Positions 4,979 to 57,959 of a DNA stretch of 64,000 bases are shown here, one piece after another. The notes beneath the pieces are model-generated. The model was not told the DNA's origin, did not search any database, and saw nothing but the letters and a program-made list of their open reading frames with translations. This DNA comes from Sphyrna mokarran (taxonomy: Eukaryota). The stretch is taken from assembly GCA_024679065.1 (NCBI GenBank), contig JAGIQG010000007.1, forward strand, positions 49,166,001-49,230,000, given 5' to 3'. The stretch's first letter is position 1. Every line of letters starts with the position of its first letter. The position numbers and the translations under genes are program-made.

Positions 4979-5763
4979 AGAACATAAAACATAGAACATT
5001 ACAGCGCAGAACAGGCCCTTCGGCCCTCGATGTTGCGCCGACCAATTAAGAAAAAGCAATGACCCTCTAACCTAAACCATTCCCTTTTCATCCATAAATC
5101 TATCCACTGACCACTTAAACGCCCCCAAACTTGGCGCATCTACAACTGCAGCAGGCAGGGCATTCCATACCCTTACCACCCTCTGGGTAAAGAACCTACC
5201 TCTGACATCTATCCTATAACTACCACCCCTTAATTTAAAGCTATGTCCCCTGGTGCTAGCTTTCTCCATCCAATGAAAAAGGCTATCACTGTCCACCCTA
5301 TCTAATCCCCTGATCATTTATATGCTTCAATAAGGTCTCCTCTTAGCTGCCTTTTTTCCAATGAAAACAACCTCAAATCCCTCAGCCTCTCCTCATAAGA
5401 CCTGCCCTCCATACCAGGCAACATCCTGGTAAACCTCCTCTGTACCCTCTCCAATGCCTCCACATCTTTCTTATAATTTGGGGACCAGAACTGTACACAA
5501 TACTCCAAGTGCGGCTGCACCAGAGTTTTGTACAGTTGCAACATGACATTGTAGCTCCGAAATTCAATCCCCCTACCAATAACAGCTAAGACTCCGTATG
5601 CCTTCTTAACAACCTTATCAACTTGATTGCCAACTTTCAGGGATTTATGCACATATACACCAACATCCCTCTGTTCATCAACACTATTAAGAGACCTACC
5701 ATTAGCCCTATACTCTATACATTTGTTATTTCTGCCAAAGTGAATTACCTCACACTTTTCCGC
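4979..5763 (-). mobile_element. CR1 LINE 3' fragment, same family as 1-1305
   Basis: ORFs 5314-5652 and 5072-5317 are nearly identical to the copy at 1-1305; (TAGAACA)n-type tail at about 4979-5000. Confidence 0.95.
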
Positions 5764-40162: not shown

Positions 40163-40700
40163 AAGTTTATTTATTTGTCCCACAAGTAGGCTTACATTGA
40201 AGCAATGAAGTTATTGTGAAAATCCTGTAGTTTCCACACTTTGGTGCGTATTCAGGTGGAAGTCTCACAGCACCAGGTTAAAGTCTAATAGGTTTATTTG
40301 ATAGTAGACACCACAAGCTTTCAGAATACTGTTCCTTCGTTGGGTGAGTGGAGAGTTCTCTCACGAAGGACGAAGAAACAGCATTCTGAAAGCTTGTGGT
40401 GTTTACTATCAAATAAAGCTGTTGAATTTTAACCTGGTATTGAGAGATTTCTTACTGCATTTACCCCAGTTGAACACTGGCATCTCCACGTCATGCCTGT
40501 GCACAGAGGGGGAATTTAGCTTGGCCAATGAACCTAAGCAACTTATCTTCAGAATGTGGGAGAAAACCAGACCACCTGGAGGAAACCCATGCAGACAGAG
40601 GGAGAATATGTAGATTCTGCACTGACAGACTCAAGCCAGAAATCTAACCCTGGTCCCTGTTGCTGTGAGATAGCAGTGCTCACCACTGTGCTATCATGCA
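40163..40700 (-). mobile_element. HE1-related SINE (CACAAGTAGGCTTACATT tail variant) interrupted by a mini-PLE
   Basis: Tail matches 62325-62385 and 4610-4660; head GCTGTGAGATAGCAGTGCTCACCACTGTGC. Confidence 0.8.
40259..40495. mobile_element. Fold-back mini-element made of a Penelope pLTR (family 1) with decayed hammerhead motifs
   Basis: Arms of about 95 bp fold at about 40355; the right arm continues with TTACTG...ACCCCAGTTGAACACTGGCATCTCCACGTCATG, matching the PLE 3' end at 55457-55506; GAAAGCTT core on both arms. Confidence 0.85.
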
Positions 40701-48043: not shown

Positions 48044-48596
48044 ATAGAATCCCTACAGTGCAGAAGGAGACCATTTGGACCATTGAGCTTGCACTGACAA
48101 CAATGCCACCCAGGCGCTCCCCCGGCCCCCCACCCCCTGACAGTAAGGGGCAATTTAGCATGGCCAATCAACCTCGTCTGCACATCTTTGAAACACAGTA
48201 AAAAGTCTGACAACACCAGGTTTAAATCCAACCAATTTATTTGATAGTAAATTCGCAAGCTTTTGACTCTATGGCCTTTGTCAGGCGAATGAGGTGTTCT
48301 GGTCTCCAACAGCATGTTGTTGGAGACCAGAACACCTCATTCACCTGACGGAGGCCATAGAGTCGAAAACTTGAGTTTACTATCAAATAAAATCTGTTGG
48401 ATTTAAACCTGGTATTGTCAGACATTTTACTGTGTTTACCCCAGTCCAATGCCAGCATTTCTACATCAACTTTGAAACACCCAGAGGAAGTTCACGCAGA
48501 TATAGTGAGAACGTGCAAGCTCCAAACAGACAGCTAGCTGAGGCCAGAATTGAACCCAGGTACTGCAAGGCAACAGTGCTAATCACTGTGCCACTG
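48044..48596 (-). mobile_element. HE1-type SINE interrupted by a mini-PLE
   Basis: ATAGAATCCCTACAGTGCAGAAGGAG tail; head CAGTGCTAATCACTGTGCCAC. Confidence 0.85.
48197..48469. mobile_element. Near-perfect palindromic mini-Penelope (pLTR only) with hammerhead motifs and an 11-bp TSD
   Basis: Arms of about 120 bp fold at CA|TG (48314/48315) with no spacer; TSD CTTTGAAACAC at 48186-48196 and 48470-48480; 3' extension ACCCCAGTCCAATGCCAGCATTTCTACATC. Confidence 0.9.
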
Positions 48597-50552
48597 TATA
48601 AATGTGGGATTCATTCTAGTTATGTTATCAAAGAATATCCTCAGTACTGCAACAATGGGATAATGATGAAAGGGAAGATCCATATATGTCAATGAGCAAA
48701 GAAATGCAACAATTTCTTGTCCAGCCAACTAGAATGTCTATTTACAAAATATATGGGCACAAATTCATTGACATAGTAACTGAAGCCAGCACCAAGGAGG
48801 CTGAGTGCCATGTTACTTATGTGTTCTGCACCACCAGCTACTTTAGTGCCTGTGCAGGCATCCCCAGATTGTGCGTTCATTGATTTTTTTTATTCATTTT
48901 ATCTGTATTTATCCCCGCACTGTGAAGAGCTTTGAATTTTTTAAAGTTAAATGTGCTATATAAATACAAGTTGTCTTTTCAAGACACCAATATCTTGGAA
49001 GCATAGTTAGTAAATTATATTGTGCCACACATGATATCAAAGGGCAATGCTGCAGTCTTAAATTGTCAAGGTAACTCTTAATTAGTGCAACTGGTTCTGT
49101 CACTAATTCAACAGCGTGATGACACTAAATGGTTCCAGACTGAAAAAGATTTCCTACAGAGCCCAGATATATTGAATGAGAAGAATTTTCCTTCAACCTT
49201 TCTGTGGAAGCTGTAAGCATTAGGCTGCTTATTACACTGGGAGGAGGGGTGTGAATGGATTATCCTGCTGGAAGCAAAGTCAGTGAGAAGTCTAATTGCT
49301 CTTCAACAGCCTACCCCCGAGCATTATGCACTGTGGGCAGACTACATTGCTTATTAATAGTCTTACCACCCTTCAGTGGGAGAACTTCCCACCCTTGGGA
49401 ATTGCCAATGAGTTGGATTTGCCAGTAACTCCCAAGAACATATAGTAGGCACTGCAACAAGGGAGTAGTAGGTCAGTGGATCCTGGATCCAGAAATGAGT
49501 CCAGTTGACCTGTTTCCGGGACCTTGGACAGGCATGGTTTGGAGTTTAGAGGGGAGGTAGCGGTGTAGAATTGATGGGTTTTATCATCAGGACAGTGAGA
49601 AGAAGGGAATGGTATCTTGGGGTGGTGGCTCTGAGAGGTGTAAAGGGCAGCCCCCTCGCACCCCCAAAGACACTACCCATTTCCTTCCCAACCTTTTAAA
49701 ATAGATTATAAAATGGCGTGCCTAACTGCCAATACCACAGCATTGTGGCACGGGCAGCAAATTTATTGGAGTTGATTGGCTTACTAGTAAGCTCAATTCA
49801 TGATTGATTTTTAAAATACGGTGGGTGGACTCCACATTTTGACACCATGTGGGTGAGCATGGGGTACGCGGGAAGGCGGGTTTGGACCTGCCTTAATTTA
49901 TACAAGCTCTGATGAAAATGTGCTTGGCAGGGGTACACATCATCCATCCCATTGTTTCAATCCCTATCATAAAATCCAATCCCAGCCACTAAATCTCTCT
50001 CTCCCCAACAGCCATTGACTGTGGCTCAATTAGACCTTTCACAATCTTGGCTTGCTATTTGACTCTGAAATGAGCTTACAACATTACCAAAATTGCCTAC
50101 TTCCATTTCCATTCACCTGTCTTTAGTTCATCTGTAGCTAAAACTCTCATCTATGGCTCTTTTACCCCTCTAGATTTGACTGTTCTAATGGCCTCCTGAC
50201 CTTTGACCCTCCAAAAATGAACTCCTCTAAAATCCATACAGAATTCTGTTCACCCATCACCCATGCTTGCTGATCTGCATCAGTTTCCACTCTGGCAATG
50301 CTAAATTAGAATAAACATTGTTTTCAAATCCCTCTTCTTATTTTTATAACCTCCTTGAAACGTACAAACATAATAGATCTTTGGGCTCCTCCAATTCCAG
50401 CATATCCTACGTATTATTTGCTCCATTAGTTGCCTGGACCTTTAGCTTTGGAAGCCTTTACCCGGCCTGCCTGCCCTTCTACATCTTTCTATAAAGTGTT
50501 CCTTAAAACTTTTCTTTAGTCAATCTAATATCTACTCATATATGGCTTTTTT

Positions 50553-52685: not shown

Positions 52686-53746
52686 TGGCAAGGGTTTTTT
52701 TTTAAAACCAGATAAACAGGAAGCCTGGGGATCATTTGTTTCTGAAATTGGAATCAATAAGAAAAAATATGAATTGCTATTCACAGCATTCAAAAGAGAG
52801 AAATGCTTCCTAAAATGTGAGGGAATAATCAAAATTTAAATCAGAAGAAAAGAGCAGTGCGCAGACTAGGGATTCCAGTGTATTAAAAGATAAGGATTTT
52901 GAGAAATAAAATTGATATAAAGTCACCAACACATTCTCAATTCCAACACAGCTTTCAGGAAATTCACTTTCTAAAGGCTTGACAAATATTTTGTACATTA
53001 TAAAGTAGAAACTCCAAATTCTGACCTCTGTCCAATATATCACTCTGGATTTGTTATCATTTTGAGCTAATAATATGGGTTCAAGCACAAAATAACAGGC
53101 TATTTTGTAAAAAAGACTAAGATTGAAATTCAGTTAGTAAAATTAAAACAGCAGTTGGAAACTTGAGAACTGAGTCATTCTCTGAATGGTGGGATTATTT
53201 TCGGGTCAGAAATTTGATGCAGTCATTCACAAACCAACACAATTATCACCCCACATTCCAGGTTCCCCAAATAGAGAAGATGGATGGCATGATATTCTAA
53301 TCCAGCAACAAAGATTCTCTACTGAAAGAGACCCCAACAGTACGTACAGTAACAGCAGTAATTGAAGCATGAACAATACCAGTTGAAAGAAACAAAGAAT
53401 TGCAGGTTGGAGGGAATGTGGAAAAGTCTGATTCCAGTTCACAGATTCCTTCTTGGAGCTGATAATTGATGCACTGAAGACAAGAGGTCCTGTACCCTGA
53501 GGTGAGTGTAAGGAGGCCATTCAGTCTCAGAAAGAAAGTGCACCTACACTTCACGGAAATTGTCAGCAACAAGTGTGATGCTGAGGAACTGGGTACTGTG
53601 TCAGAAATGGTTTAATGACCATTTGAGATCTGGCAAGGTGTGTCTGGCAACTTGCAATGGATAACCATCGCCATCTGTCCTCCCTAGCATTTTCCTGAAT
53701 ACCTAATCGACACACCTTGCAATCTTCTGGCCTATCATTAATCATT

Positions 53747-55506
53747 AAGAATTTAGCAACACCAATTATTAATCCAACCGATTTATTTGATAGTAAAAAA
53801 GCGAGCTTTCAACACTCCCGTGTCTTCATCAGGCAAGTGCAGTGTTCTGGTCTGCAATAGCACACATCAGCACAGACAGTCAGAGATTGCTGATTAGATC
53901 GCTTCATCTTGGACCACAATGTCTTCACTTTCAACAATCAGCTTTTCATCCAGACACACGGAACAGCCATGGGGACCAAATTCGCACCTCAGTATGCCAA
54001 CATCTTCATGCACAGGTTCGAACAAGACTTCTTCACCACACGAGATCTCCAACCAAGGTTATATACTAGATACATTGATGGCATCTTTTTCCTTTGGACT
54101 CATGATGAACAATCATTGAAACAACTGTATGATGATATCAACAAGTTCCATCCCACCATCAGACTCACCATGGACTATTCTCCAGAATCAGTTGCATTCT
54201 GTTGGACACACGCATCTCCATCAAGGACGGTCACCTCAGCACCTCACTGTACCGCAAACCGACAGACAACCTCACCATGCTCCACTTCTCCAGCTTCCAC
54301 CCTAGACACATTAAAGAAGCCATTCCCTATGGACAAGCCCTCCGTATACACAGAATTTGCTCAGATGAGGAGGATCGTGACAGACACCTCCAGACACTGA
54401 AGGATGCATTCGTGAGAACAGGATATGGCGCTCGACTCATCGATCGACAGTTCCAACGTGCCACAACGATAAACCGCACTGATCTCCTCAGAAGACGAAC
54501 ACGGGACACGGTGGACAGAGTAGCCTTTGTTGTCCAGTACTTCCCCGGAGCGGAGAAGCTACGACATCTTCTCCGGAGTCTTCAACATATCATTGATGAC
54601 GATGAACATCTCGCTAGGGCCATCCCCACCGCCCCACTTCTTGCTTTCAGACAACCGCACAACCTCAAACAGATCATTGTTCGCAGCAAACTACCCAACC
54701 TTCAGGAGAACAGTGACCACAATACCACACAACCCTGCCACAGCAACCTCTGCAAGACATGCCGGATCATAGACATGGACGACATCATCACACGTGAGGA
54801 TACCATTCACCAGATGCACGGTACATACTCTTGCAACTCGGCCAACGTTGTCTACCTAATACGTTGCAAGAAAGGATGTCCCGAAGCATGGTATATTGGG
54901 GAGACCATGCAAACACTATGACAGCGGATGAATGAGCATCGCTCAACAATCACCAGGCAAAACAGTTCCCTTCCTGTGGGTGAACACTTCCGCAGTCATG
55001 GGCATTCGGCCTCCGACCTGCGGGTAAATGTTCTTCAAGGGGGCTTTCGTGATACACGACAGCGCAGAGTCGCTGAACAGAGACTGATAGCCAAGCTCCG
55101 CACACATGAGGACGGTCTTAACAGGGATCTTGGCTTCATGACACACTATCTGTAACCCCCGTAACTTGCCTGGGTTAGCAACAAACCTCACTTACTGTGC
55201 TGTCTGGAGAAAATACACAATTCTCTAACAATGCTCAGGATCCCCTTCACACACATTGTTAGCCACTTTAACACTTGAATAGCAGGTTAGATGTAAGGAT
55301 TCGCATTCTAATCAGCAATCTCTGACTGTCTGTGCTGATGTGGGCTATTGCAGACCAGAACACTGCACTTGCCTGATGAAGACACGGGAGTGTTGAAAGC
55401 TCGCTTTTTTACTATCAAATAAATCGGTTGGATTAATAATTGGTGTTGCTAAATTCTTACTGAGTTCTTACCACTCCAATCCAACGCCGGCATCTTTACA
55501 TCATGA
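53747..55506 (+). mobile_element. 5'-truncated Penelope-like retroelement (RT plus GIY-YIG) with inverted pLTRs and a 15-bp TSD
   Basis: RT motifs GTAMGTKFAPQYANIFM, RYIDG(D), LYRKPTD, IPYGQALR; GIY-YIG NVVYLIRC...YIGET...EH...GLN; frameshift at about 54200 and TGA at 54919; 153-bp inverted repeat 53746-53898 / 55307-55459 with one mismatch seen; TSD CTATCATTAATCATT at 53732-53746 and 55507-55521. Confidence 0.97.
55371..55404 (+). ncRNA. Minimal type I hammerhead ribozyme motif in the pLTR (mirror copy at 53801-53834, minus strand)
   Basis: GC-CTGATGA-A-GACAC-GGGA-GTGTT-GAA-AGCT-C^GC: intact core, 5-bp helix II, palindromic AGCT typical of dimer-dependent PLE hammerheads; helix I is only 2 bp. 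Confidence 0.7.
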
Positions 55507-57959
55507 CTATCATTAATCATTGCAGGATTTTATATGACTTTTCTTTCAATTTGATTCTATCCTTAACTCACTTCATTAACCAATAATGATACACCCTTCT
55601 TGCTCAATGGAATACATCTTTGTTGAGAGTTACGGAATATCTCTATAAATGTCTACCACCACCTATCTACTATCTTAGCTTTTAATCTATTTTTCAGCCC
55701 ACTATAAATCAAGTCTGTCTTCAGTTTTGTGATTGCCGTTATTTAAATTTAAGACATTATTTTCCAATCCAGAATTCTCAACCACAAACTGAATGTTTTG
55801 ATCACAAATTCAACACTTAGAATTTTTGGGGAGAATCATCCCTATCCCCACATTAGTGCCTAAAATAGCAAATAGTTGGGGCATAGTCTAATTTCATAAT
55901 GTACCTTGGGGTTTCTGATCACGTCCCTCAACGAAACCATGAAACTAGAAAGAGGATGTAGCCAGTTATGTGGAATTCCACCAAACAGATTATTTTAGAT
56001 AGAATTGGTGATAACACGGATAGTTCTAATCCAGTGTTAAACTATTACTAGGAGAATAAAAAAAAGCTTGAGAATTGGAGTTAGATATTGACGGAAACTG
56101 CAGAGAGGCAGAAAACACTTAAAAAGAGTCTAAATTAGATAATGGAATGGGAAGGCCTACAGAAACAAGAGCAATCAAGAGAATGAACTATCAACCTAAA
56201 TAATGATGTTAGTCACTGGATTCAAGATTGACCTATTTATTAAACAAGAGTTTGGGGCTGAAATTTGAAATCTCGTTAATAAAATGCTTTTGTACAATTT
56301 CAACAGCAACTGCAGCTGTGATCATGTGTTGTTGAAGGTTTTGATGCATGCAAGATAGACAGGAATAGGCTAGAAATCATCATGAAAAACCAATGTAATG
56401 TAAAAGTCCCAATCAGGAGAGAAGGAATAAAATTCTAGCTTGCTTGGAATAAATAATGTATCAGAAACAGTTTCTTGTTATGATGAGTAAAATAAGAAGA
56501 AAACATACCTTTGTTTAATTGTGCTCTGTTCCCTAATGAGCTGAAAAGCTGTAGAGATCTCAAGAGGGCAAAGTGCAGGGTAGCAGAAAGAATCAACCTC
56601 TAGGGTAGACCTAGGCATAGTTGAATGACCAACATCAAAGCAGTTGCAGGCGAGCTACAGTGGATGTGTCAGGATAGCACATAACAGCTGAGTGTAATGG
56701 ATCATGACAGCAGACCTACTGGTAGGAGTAGGAGTAACAGCAGCAGCAGCAGCAGCCTACTAATGATACTCCCCTTGTTAACAATTTTTTGTATGCTGAA
56801 GTAATGAATAAAGTCATTAGAATCATAATCACTGACTGATTTTGTTACTACTCAAGTGACCAATGAAAATTTTAAATAATGGAGCTCTAATTGTGATCAG
56901 GAAAGGCTCCAGAGATGGGTTATCTGCCACAATTAAGGACTGGGGCAAAGGAGACCCAATGTATCCTTGTGAGGTCTGCAGGTGTACTGTTGCTCCCCCT
57001 GGGCAACAAGGCAACCTAAAGTCATATTTTTCATACTTTGTTGAGTCTTGTCTGGCCGACATTCCAATTCCAGGCAGGTATGGCCTGATGAACTTGATAA
57101 TCTGCCAATAACATCGTTGGACCAAATCTGTATATTGAAAGCACTCTGCACTCCTATGAGTGTCCAGTTCTTTTGTTGAACAGCAGGAAGTCAGCAAGAT
57201 TAGAGGAGTTAAGTGACTGGACCTCTCAGGTGATAGCAGCTAAAAAAAATCAAGACTCTTAAGCAACAACATGGAAAAAAGATTTAGCTTTAACTCAAAG
57301 AAGTTATAAAGGACATGGCTGAATTCTTAAGTAGTTCAGAGTGTAGTGTATTTGGAAGGTCAGTAGAGGGAATTATATTTGGTTGGTATCAACGCGATAG
57401 GAAGCCAAAATGCTTTTGGCCATTTCCAATGCAACCTGACTCTGGGAACTACTGCAACTGCATTGTGTGTGGCCCAAATGCATGTAAAGTGGGTAGATAG
57501 TGTTGGCCACCATCTCTTGCTGATTTGACAATCTGGAATTTTTGACCATATGAATCCAGTCTCTTAATCACTCCCAACTGGACATACATTCAAATGCACG
57601 AGGAATACCTGCATCACCACCAACTTCCCCCACCTCCCACCAATAGTGCTATTTAAAAGGCAAATAATACAACCTCCAGGTGATTTGCTTCTGACTTTCT
57701 TTTGTGGTACAGAATCAGTGGAATTACACAGATTGTTACTGAAGGAGTTTTGAAAACAATTTGAATTTACAATTGAGTTGAAATGGATTTTGACAAGGTG
57801 GTCGGAGGAATTGAAATGAATATTTCAATGATGGGAATTATTGGTGTGATCCCCTTCAGCTGCAGCACGACTTGGAAATGGACCATAAGCAGCGGATGTA
57901 GAAAACTTCACATACAGGTTAGAGAAGTAAACCATTAATCAGAAGCTCCTGCCCACATA

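Follow-up and report, generated by a model that had tools for sequence, protein, structure and literature searches.

In D. virilis the insertions of Penelope, an EN+ Penelope-like element (PLE), carry an inverted pLTR, a tail of 30-40 bp at one side only and a TSD (PMC2377424), and Pen2a_Av of Adineta has an inverted pLTR together with a 31-bp tail and a 9-bp TSD (PMC3846280). The inverted-pLTR layout is given as the typical PLE arrangement by Craig et al. 2021, who in the part of their paper cited here leave the steps that produce the tandem and inverted PLE ends undefined (PMC8557442). The palindromic layout as such is already published (Arkhipova et al. 2013; Craig et al. 2021). For the minimal type I hammerheads of metazoan PLEs, the occurrence of motif pairs lying 100-700 bp apart on opposite strands has been noted (PMC4209133), and the PLE protein studied by Frangieh 2024 cuts and extends both strands, the hammerhead being dispensable in vitro (PMC11167929), as far as the cited parts of these papers go.

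Here we describe a palindromic insert in a 64-kb window, by which we mean the whole stretch of shark DNA that was analysed. The insert is with high probability a single decayed EN+ PLE insertion, in which the last 155 bases of the element are present twice, once inverted and without the tail and once with it. The identity of the element and its status as a dead end, taken by themselves, are close to certain.

Architecture of the locus

The features of the locus are listed below, with element positions counted backward from the tail end.

48044 to 48196, forward strand: 5' part of the host SINE, which has many partial copies in the window and in the fetched loci
48186 to 48196, forward strand: left copy of the 11-bp target duplication, CTTTGAAACAC; its last 6 bases also match the inverted arm
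48191 to 48314, reverse strand: arm in inverted orientation and lacking the tail, spanning element positions -154 to -31 (to -37 if the 6-nt overlap is left out), 96.8% identical to the family majority sequence
48251 to 48290, reverse strand: minimal type I hammerhead of the left arm; helices preserved, with A in place of G8 (48279) and G12 (48264)
48314 to 48315, no strand: fold junction with zero spacer, both arms ending at -154
48315 to 48468, forward strand: tailed sense arm, the last 155 nt of the element (pLTR end), 90.4% identical to the family majority sequence
48339 to 48376, forward strand: minimal type I hammerhead of the right arm; A9 changed to G (48351), AGCT to AACT (48369), 2-nt loss in helix I
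48438 to 48468, forward strand: one-sided PLE tail of 31 nt (37 nt if the overlap is assigned to the target)
48470 to 48480, forward strand: right copy of the 11-bp target duplication, CTTTGAAACAC
48481 to 48597, forward strand: 3' part of the host SINE

The two arms (48191-48314 and 48315-48437) pair at 88.8% identity over 125 columns, 14 of which differ, with no spacer between them, and the hairpin RNA has a predicted folding energy of -183.1 kcal/mol (z = -21 against 100 shuffles). The first-pass annotation of this DNA had reported a spacerless palindrome with arms of about 120 bp, an 11-bp duplication and a position inside a SINE, and all three are borne out by the arm pairing, by the two copies of CTTTGAAACAC and by flanks that match a repeat with many copies inside the window. 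Its description of a 273-bp palindrome was too wide. The palindrome is real, and 273 bp is the distance between the two duplication copies, of which 48438-48468 form the tail on one side, which had been overlooked and is not palindromic, while 48469 is a single base outside both the tail and the right duplication copy. The CpG-type decay that it had seen between the arms applies to 4 of the 14 differences, which are CpG transitions. The insert contains no coding sequence, no ORF and no second direct pLTR, only the two arms of about 120-155 nt.

Of the 11 duplicated bases, six (AAACAC) also match the beginning of the inverted arm. The host SINE, which presumably resembles the shark HE1/V-SINE, is at the insertion point (48180-48200) shorter than the 10 other copies shown, with alignment gaps of 8-18 nt. 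Since the shortening coincides exactly with the duplication, the 11-bp repeat may have been produced by repair at a small deletion in the target and would then not be a true target duplication; gaps at the same place are also present in other SINE copies. An empty target site was not seen, and no tandem array was found at the locus.

Identity of the element

A 25-mer from the arm has at least 3,637 exact matches in the genome, and one arm used as query returned 2,964 genome candidates. At one of the loci (L010) the arm sequence stands after the end of an ORF, and a fragment of this ORF as query gave 19,986 candidates, of which 150 were scored. In the fetched copies the ORFs are 641-945 aa long and encode GxKF-like, DKG and YIDD motifs together with a CX4CxxC linker, which reads CHSNLCKTC or CHNNLCKTC in the ORFs reaching it, and a two-Cys GIY-YIG motif. 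In loci L126-L144 the ORF end and the 3' region are directly covered by the 672-nt family end, at 86-94% identity. A Pfam search with a family ORF detected RVT_1 (E = 6e-10), and the same search with two ORF fragments of L010 returned no families; the GIY-YIG motif was read by eye and is absent from the Pfam output. At L139 and L140 the last base of the tail is the A of an ATG that reads into the N-terminus of an ORF, and this ATG is likely to start the next ORF.

The Neptune and Nematis clades have a CX2-5CxxC linker between RT and EN (PMC8557442, in the part cited), and the linker of the family ORFs falls within this pattern. The protein of these clades and the family ORFs thus have the linker in common, whereas the window element encodes nothing. 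A pLTR 3' end, an inverted 5'-truncated copy, a one-sided tail of 30-40 bp and a TSD of variable length, which are the marks of EN+ PLE insertions, are all present in the family. Judged from these sequence features the source is an EN+ Penelope-like element of Neptune or Nematis type.

Layout of related insertions

The layout was counted in two samples. Sample A consists of the first 100 listed matches to the 25-mer, which represent 89 insertions, and sample B of 87 of the 100 listed matches of a second search, 13 being dropped as already in the set or as second arms. Both samples need an exact motif and are biased to well-kept copies of one subfamily, and the arm-end positions, taken from BLAST, are accurate to about 3 nt. 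An inverted 5'-truncated copy adjoining a direct copy is found in 99 of the 176 sampled insertions and in the window copy; the remaining insertions are 67 single arms (27 tailed and 40 tail-less) and 10 other inverted pieces. One tail was counted in 97 of the palindromes, none in 2 and both in 0. The tail-less arms end between -23 and -44, with a mode at -37, and the fold points are scattered from -27 to -636. Duplications of at least 7 nt accompany 63 of 97 palindromes (range 7-19 nt, median 11), compared with 2 of 142 mismatched junction pairs used as control. The suggestion that the window insert arose by an extreme 5' truncation and inversion of a PLE is correct in that a hammerhead-bearing pLTR has been truncated and inverted, though it is not extreme, as most of the sampled arms are shorter or of similar length.

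Larger insertions have the same layout. Four loci (L139, L140, L141 and L143) are palindromes of 3.5-6 kb with two near-complete ORF copies back to back and one tail each, and these are possible sources of long double-stranded RNA. The window itself holds three palindromic PLE insertions. One, at 53728-55520, is younger and belongs to a sister subfamily. Its inverted arm has 156 bp and no tail and is 98.7% identical to its partner; the other arm, of 1.6 kb, contains coding sequence for the RT end and GIY-YIG that is frameshifted. The insertion also has a tail and a 15-bp duplication, and the core of its hammerhead seems intact. Another, at 40259-40493, is an older palindromic stub of a related PLE family with a tail at the right and arms that are about 80% alike. 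Since the same layout occurs at the scale of several kilobases and twice more in the window, the palindrome described here is the short end of a size continuum of PLE palindromes. Two further self-inverted stretches, at 333-1307 (84%) and 1497-1688 (74%), do not belong to this family by BLAST; the former is tied to inverted matches at 4982-5749, and the latter has weak miRNA-like Rfam matches.

The hammerhead motifs

The family motif has the core boxes, an extra A before helix II, helices I and II, a palindromic AGCT in helix III and H at position 17. Its helices covary, which makes a hammerhead at the level of the family credible. The pair -126/-95 is A-U in 42, G-C in 26, A-C in 14 and G-U in 9 of 95 copies, and the pair -115/-106 is A-U in 53, G-C in 25, G-U in 24 and A-C in 3 of 109, these being counts of copies with shared ancestry and not of events. 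Position 17 is G in 1 of 247 cases. In the sister subfamily (L235-L264) helix II, loop II and position 17 (A, U and C in 13, 9 and 9) vary widely, with the core boxes and AGCT fixed. The core is intact in 48 of 89 arms and the whole motif in 21 of 89; an intact copy is present, for example, at L057. G8 and G12 are the core bases most frequently lost (22 and 16 of 89 arms), and both stand in CpG (positions -119 and -104), which suggests that host methylation is likely to silence inserted hammerheads quickly. An apparent majority of A at G8 in the first 30 matches was an effect of the query and was discarded; in the position-sampled set G is present in 77 of 105.

The type I hammerhead that had been reconstructed by combining the two arms of the window copy is in line with this family motif, but neither arm is intact. 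No intact hammerhead core was found on either strand of the window copy, and an Rfam scan gave no match to a hammerhead family. The helix I 3' strand GCGAAT of the reconstruction contains a private change of the left arm, where the family has GCGAGT or GTGAGT. Nor does the proposal hold that either strand would give a hairpin with one hammerhead, because both motifs are mutated and pairing of the core within the hairpin is predicted. In the predicted fold of the full hairpin this pairing is found on the plus strand, and on the minus strand the core is paired except for a 2-nt mismatch; taken alone, the right-arm motif is not predicted to form the helices of a hammerhead. The window copy is on these predictions unlikely to cleave itself. 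The Rfam matches to mir-5882 and MIR841 lie far below the gathering scores and were rejected as reflecting any perfect hairpin.

Arm ends accumulate between -136 and -124, the 5' edge of helix I, where the flanking density predicts 19 ends and 46 of 275 are found; in sample B alone, on which the choice of the interval was not based, 8.9 are predicted and 22 found. This cluster may mark an RNA start or a stall, and the window fold at -154 lies outside it. At the cleavage site (-100 to -92) no such pile-up is found, 17 ends being observed with 20.8 expected locally, so there is no genomic sign of cleavage in the family.

Recurrence of the junction

Movement of the palindrome as a unit, as a retrozyme-like family, had been raised as the other possible origin, with a genome-wide search for identical fold junctions as the proposed check. 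A 28-nt junction pattern with up to 2 mismatches has the window locus as its only match in the genome, and looser patterns find two loci of the family, the window and L147; a further match, L146, has no similarity to the family and was dropped. The search thus revealed the same fold at one additional locus only. L147 (L147:1359-1630, G000:C224 near 284,370) is a zero-spacer palindrome with the same fold base and its own 13-bp duplication, as would be expected if a non-autonomous palindromic unit were transcribed, self-cleaved and re-inserted whole, and the covariation in the family hammerhead also speaks for such a unit. However, each arm of L147 departs from each arm of the window copy at about nine positions, and their letters are those of the sister subfamily (at least 3,225 exact 25-mer matches), in which 25 sampled insertions have many other fold points. 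The fold of the window copy is unshared within its own subfamily. Given this separate subfamily of L147, the junction at -154 most likely arose twice, independently. A second zero-spacer case is by rough estimate within reach of chance, since there are thousands of palindromes and about 5% of them are within 1 nt of symmetry. The sequence at -160 to -153 is rich in TG, which might promote clean joins there.

Identical end positions are shared by one pair of loci only among 97 palindromes, with the tails on opposite arms, and no short head-to-tail hammerhead neighbours were found in 177 loci. Neither a head-to-tail tandem with complete hammerheads nor the same unit at many loci, as retrozymes have, was found, and both hammerheads of the window copy are damaged and predicted to be locked in the hairpin. 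On this genomic evidence the window palindrome does not move as a unit, and we regard a retrozyme-like unit as very improbable.

Origin of the palindrome

Within the sampled palindromes the two arm ends are correlated (rho 0.58, n = 97; 0.56 in sample A and 0.58 in sample B), the more so without the ends in -140 to -120 (0.70), and they lie at most 20 nt apart in 47 of 97 cases compared with 22 by permutation. Subfamily letters are shared within a palindrome in 89% and 88% of comparisons, compared with 51% and 68% between loci, while the arms of one palindrome conflict in 11-12% of the diagnostic comparisons, and of 256 rare variants only 18 occur in both arms. The shared letters could mean that one subfamily was active at a time, or that gene conversion took place between the arms. 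Fillers of at least 6 nt at the junctions copy neighbouring arm sequence in 19 of 39 cases, compared with 9% for shuffled fillers. Copying of neighbouring sequence is a property of end-joining fillers.

Correlated ends and shared letters would also result from self-priming, in which the antisense RNA or the first cDNA folds back on itself and the tail is trimmed from one arm in resolution; self-priming on the antisense template was proposed by Arkhipova et al. 2013 (PMC3846280, in the part cited). The tail-less arm is the longer one in 63 of 96 unequal cases, with a median of 7 nt, as expected from a small loop on the antisense template, an overlap of a few bases is present at 25 of 97 junctions, and zero-spacer junctions resemble opened hairpins. 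Yet the tailed arm is longer in the other 33 of 96, with a maximum excess of 509 nt in the first-hit set and of 260 nt in sample A, and 52 of 97 junctions have at least 3 unaligned bases, which are often templated. Moreover, single copies end at each of the two tail sites (the 27 and 40 noted above), so both sites are used without a fold. Fold-back of a tailed cDNA would need the tailed arm to be longer every time, and as sole route it is ruled out by the 63 of 96 cases with a longer tail-less arm. Taken together, self-priming appears rather doubtful as the origin of the palindrome.

A different route to the zero spacer would be an ordinary asymmetric palindrome with a spacer, which lost its centre by a later deletion. 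Exact symmetry is indeed rare (equal ends in 1 of 97 palindromes, within 1 nt in 5 of 97), and long palindromes are known to undergo rearrangement at the centre. Centre deletions in palindromes usually create asymmetry, however, and do not remove it, and the second independent locus has the same clean junction. This route is improbable, and the identity of the element would be unaffected by it.

The one-tail rule, the correlated ends, the shared letters and the templated fillers rather suggest that both sides of the cut were primed, with one start site each, and then joined by end-joining; the RNA may have been shared. We infer this two-primer mechanism, in which both sides of a staggered cut are primed from element RNA, from genomic end-products, no intermediate having been observed, and we would put it at even odds; its version with one RNA is tentative. 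The GIY-YIG domain would nick both strands about 11 nt apart. Of the two 3' ends, one would then start reverse transcription from the end of the tail, while the second would do so from its base, some 37 nt upstream, aided in this case by a 6-nt microhomology. Either a single RNA or two RNAs with a common source would serve as template for both cDNAs, which would terminate at -154, after which host end-joining would fuse the cDNA ends head to head and the gaps would be filled. The inserted copy would later decay, including CpG loss at G8 and G12, and the decayed copy would neither cleave itself nor spread.

The PLE protein of Frangieh 2024 starts at two sites bounding the tail, with no difference in start site seen between top and bottom strand, and is predicted to be a dimer (PMC11167929, in the part cited). 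Equal use of the start sites alone does not give the one-tail rule; free choice of start site at each side predicts two tails or none in about half of the palindromes, compared with 2 of 99 observed. It is conceivable, and we suggest it only tentatively, that a dimeric RT-endonuclease primes both cut sides on one RNA, with one subunit per tail-bounding start site, and that the arms run to the common RNA 5' end, often the 5' edge of the hammerhead. A dimer acting on one RNA would account for the single tail per palindrome, the coupling between arm ends and spacers close to zero.

Comparison with known systems

The locus itself is of little weight, being one dead copy among thousands. The large number of such stubs in the genome makes their end positions countable, and the options for PLE end inversion are narrowed by the 97:2:0 tail rule, by the coupling of the arm ends and by their accumulation at the 5' edge of the hammerhead. 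Such hairpins can moreover be mistaken for miRNA precursors, MITEs or retrozymes, as the sub-threshold Rfam miRNA matches illustrate here.

In L1 twin priming two target ends prime cDNA, which leads to a 5' inversion within the TSD. There the inverted segment comes from another part of the RNA, further upstream, whereas both arms of the PLE stubs cover the same 3' stretch, and this is why a palindrome results. L1 twin priming is mentioned in bioRxiv 10.1101/2024.12.14.628481, and among the papers listed by a literature search on twin priming none is, by its title or the start of its abstract, on PLE inversion; a search combining twin priming with PLEs found no paper.

The motifs of Cervera and de la Pena 2014 (PMC4209133, in the part cited) agree with those described here in the extra base between 9 and 10.1, in G10.1-C11.1, in the palindromic 15.2-16.2 and in the variable helix II, which has 3-4 bp in the shark family compared with 7-8 in Schistosoma; they differ from the window insert, where both copies are mutated. 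Non-LTR retrozymes, as far as described in the cited parts (PMC7229834; bioRxiv 10.64898/2026.07.22.740005), are like the window insert non-coding, derived from a pLTR, a few hundred bases long and provided with a type I hammerhead, but they form head-to-tail tandems with intact hammerheads and circular RNA, whereas the insert is head to head, single and damaged.

There is close similarity with the EN+ PLE insertions (PMC3846280, PMC8557442 and PMC2377424, in the parts cited). These too have an inverted 5'-truncated copy head to head with a direct copy, a palindrome at the junction, a tail at one end only and a short duplication (8-10 bp in Adineta, median 11 here), while the window insert differs in having no ORF, no second direct pLTR and arms of only about 120-155 nt. 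The locus is most likely an ordinary fold-back stub of a PLE, genuine but decayed, rather than a mobile RNA of a new kind.
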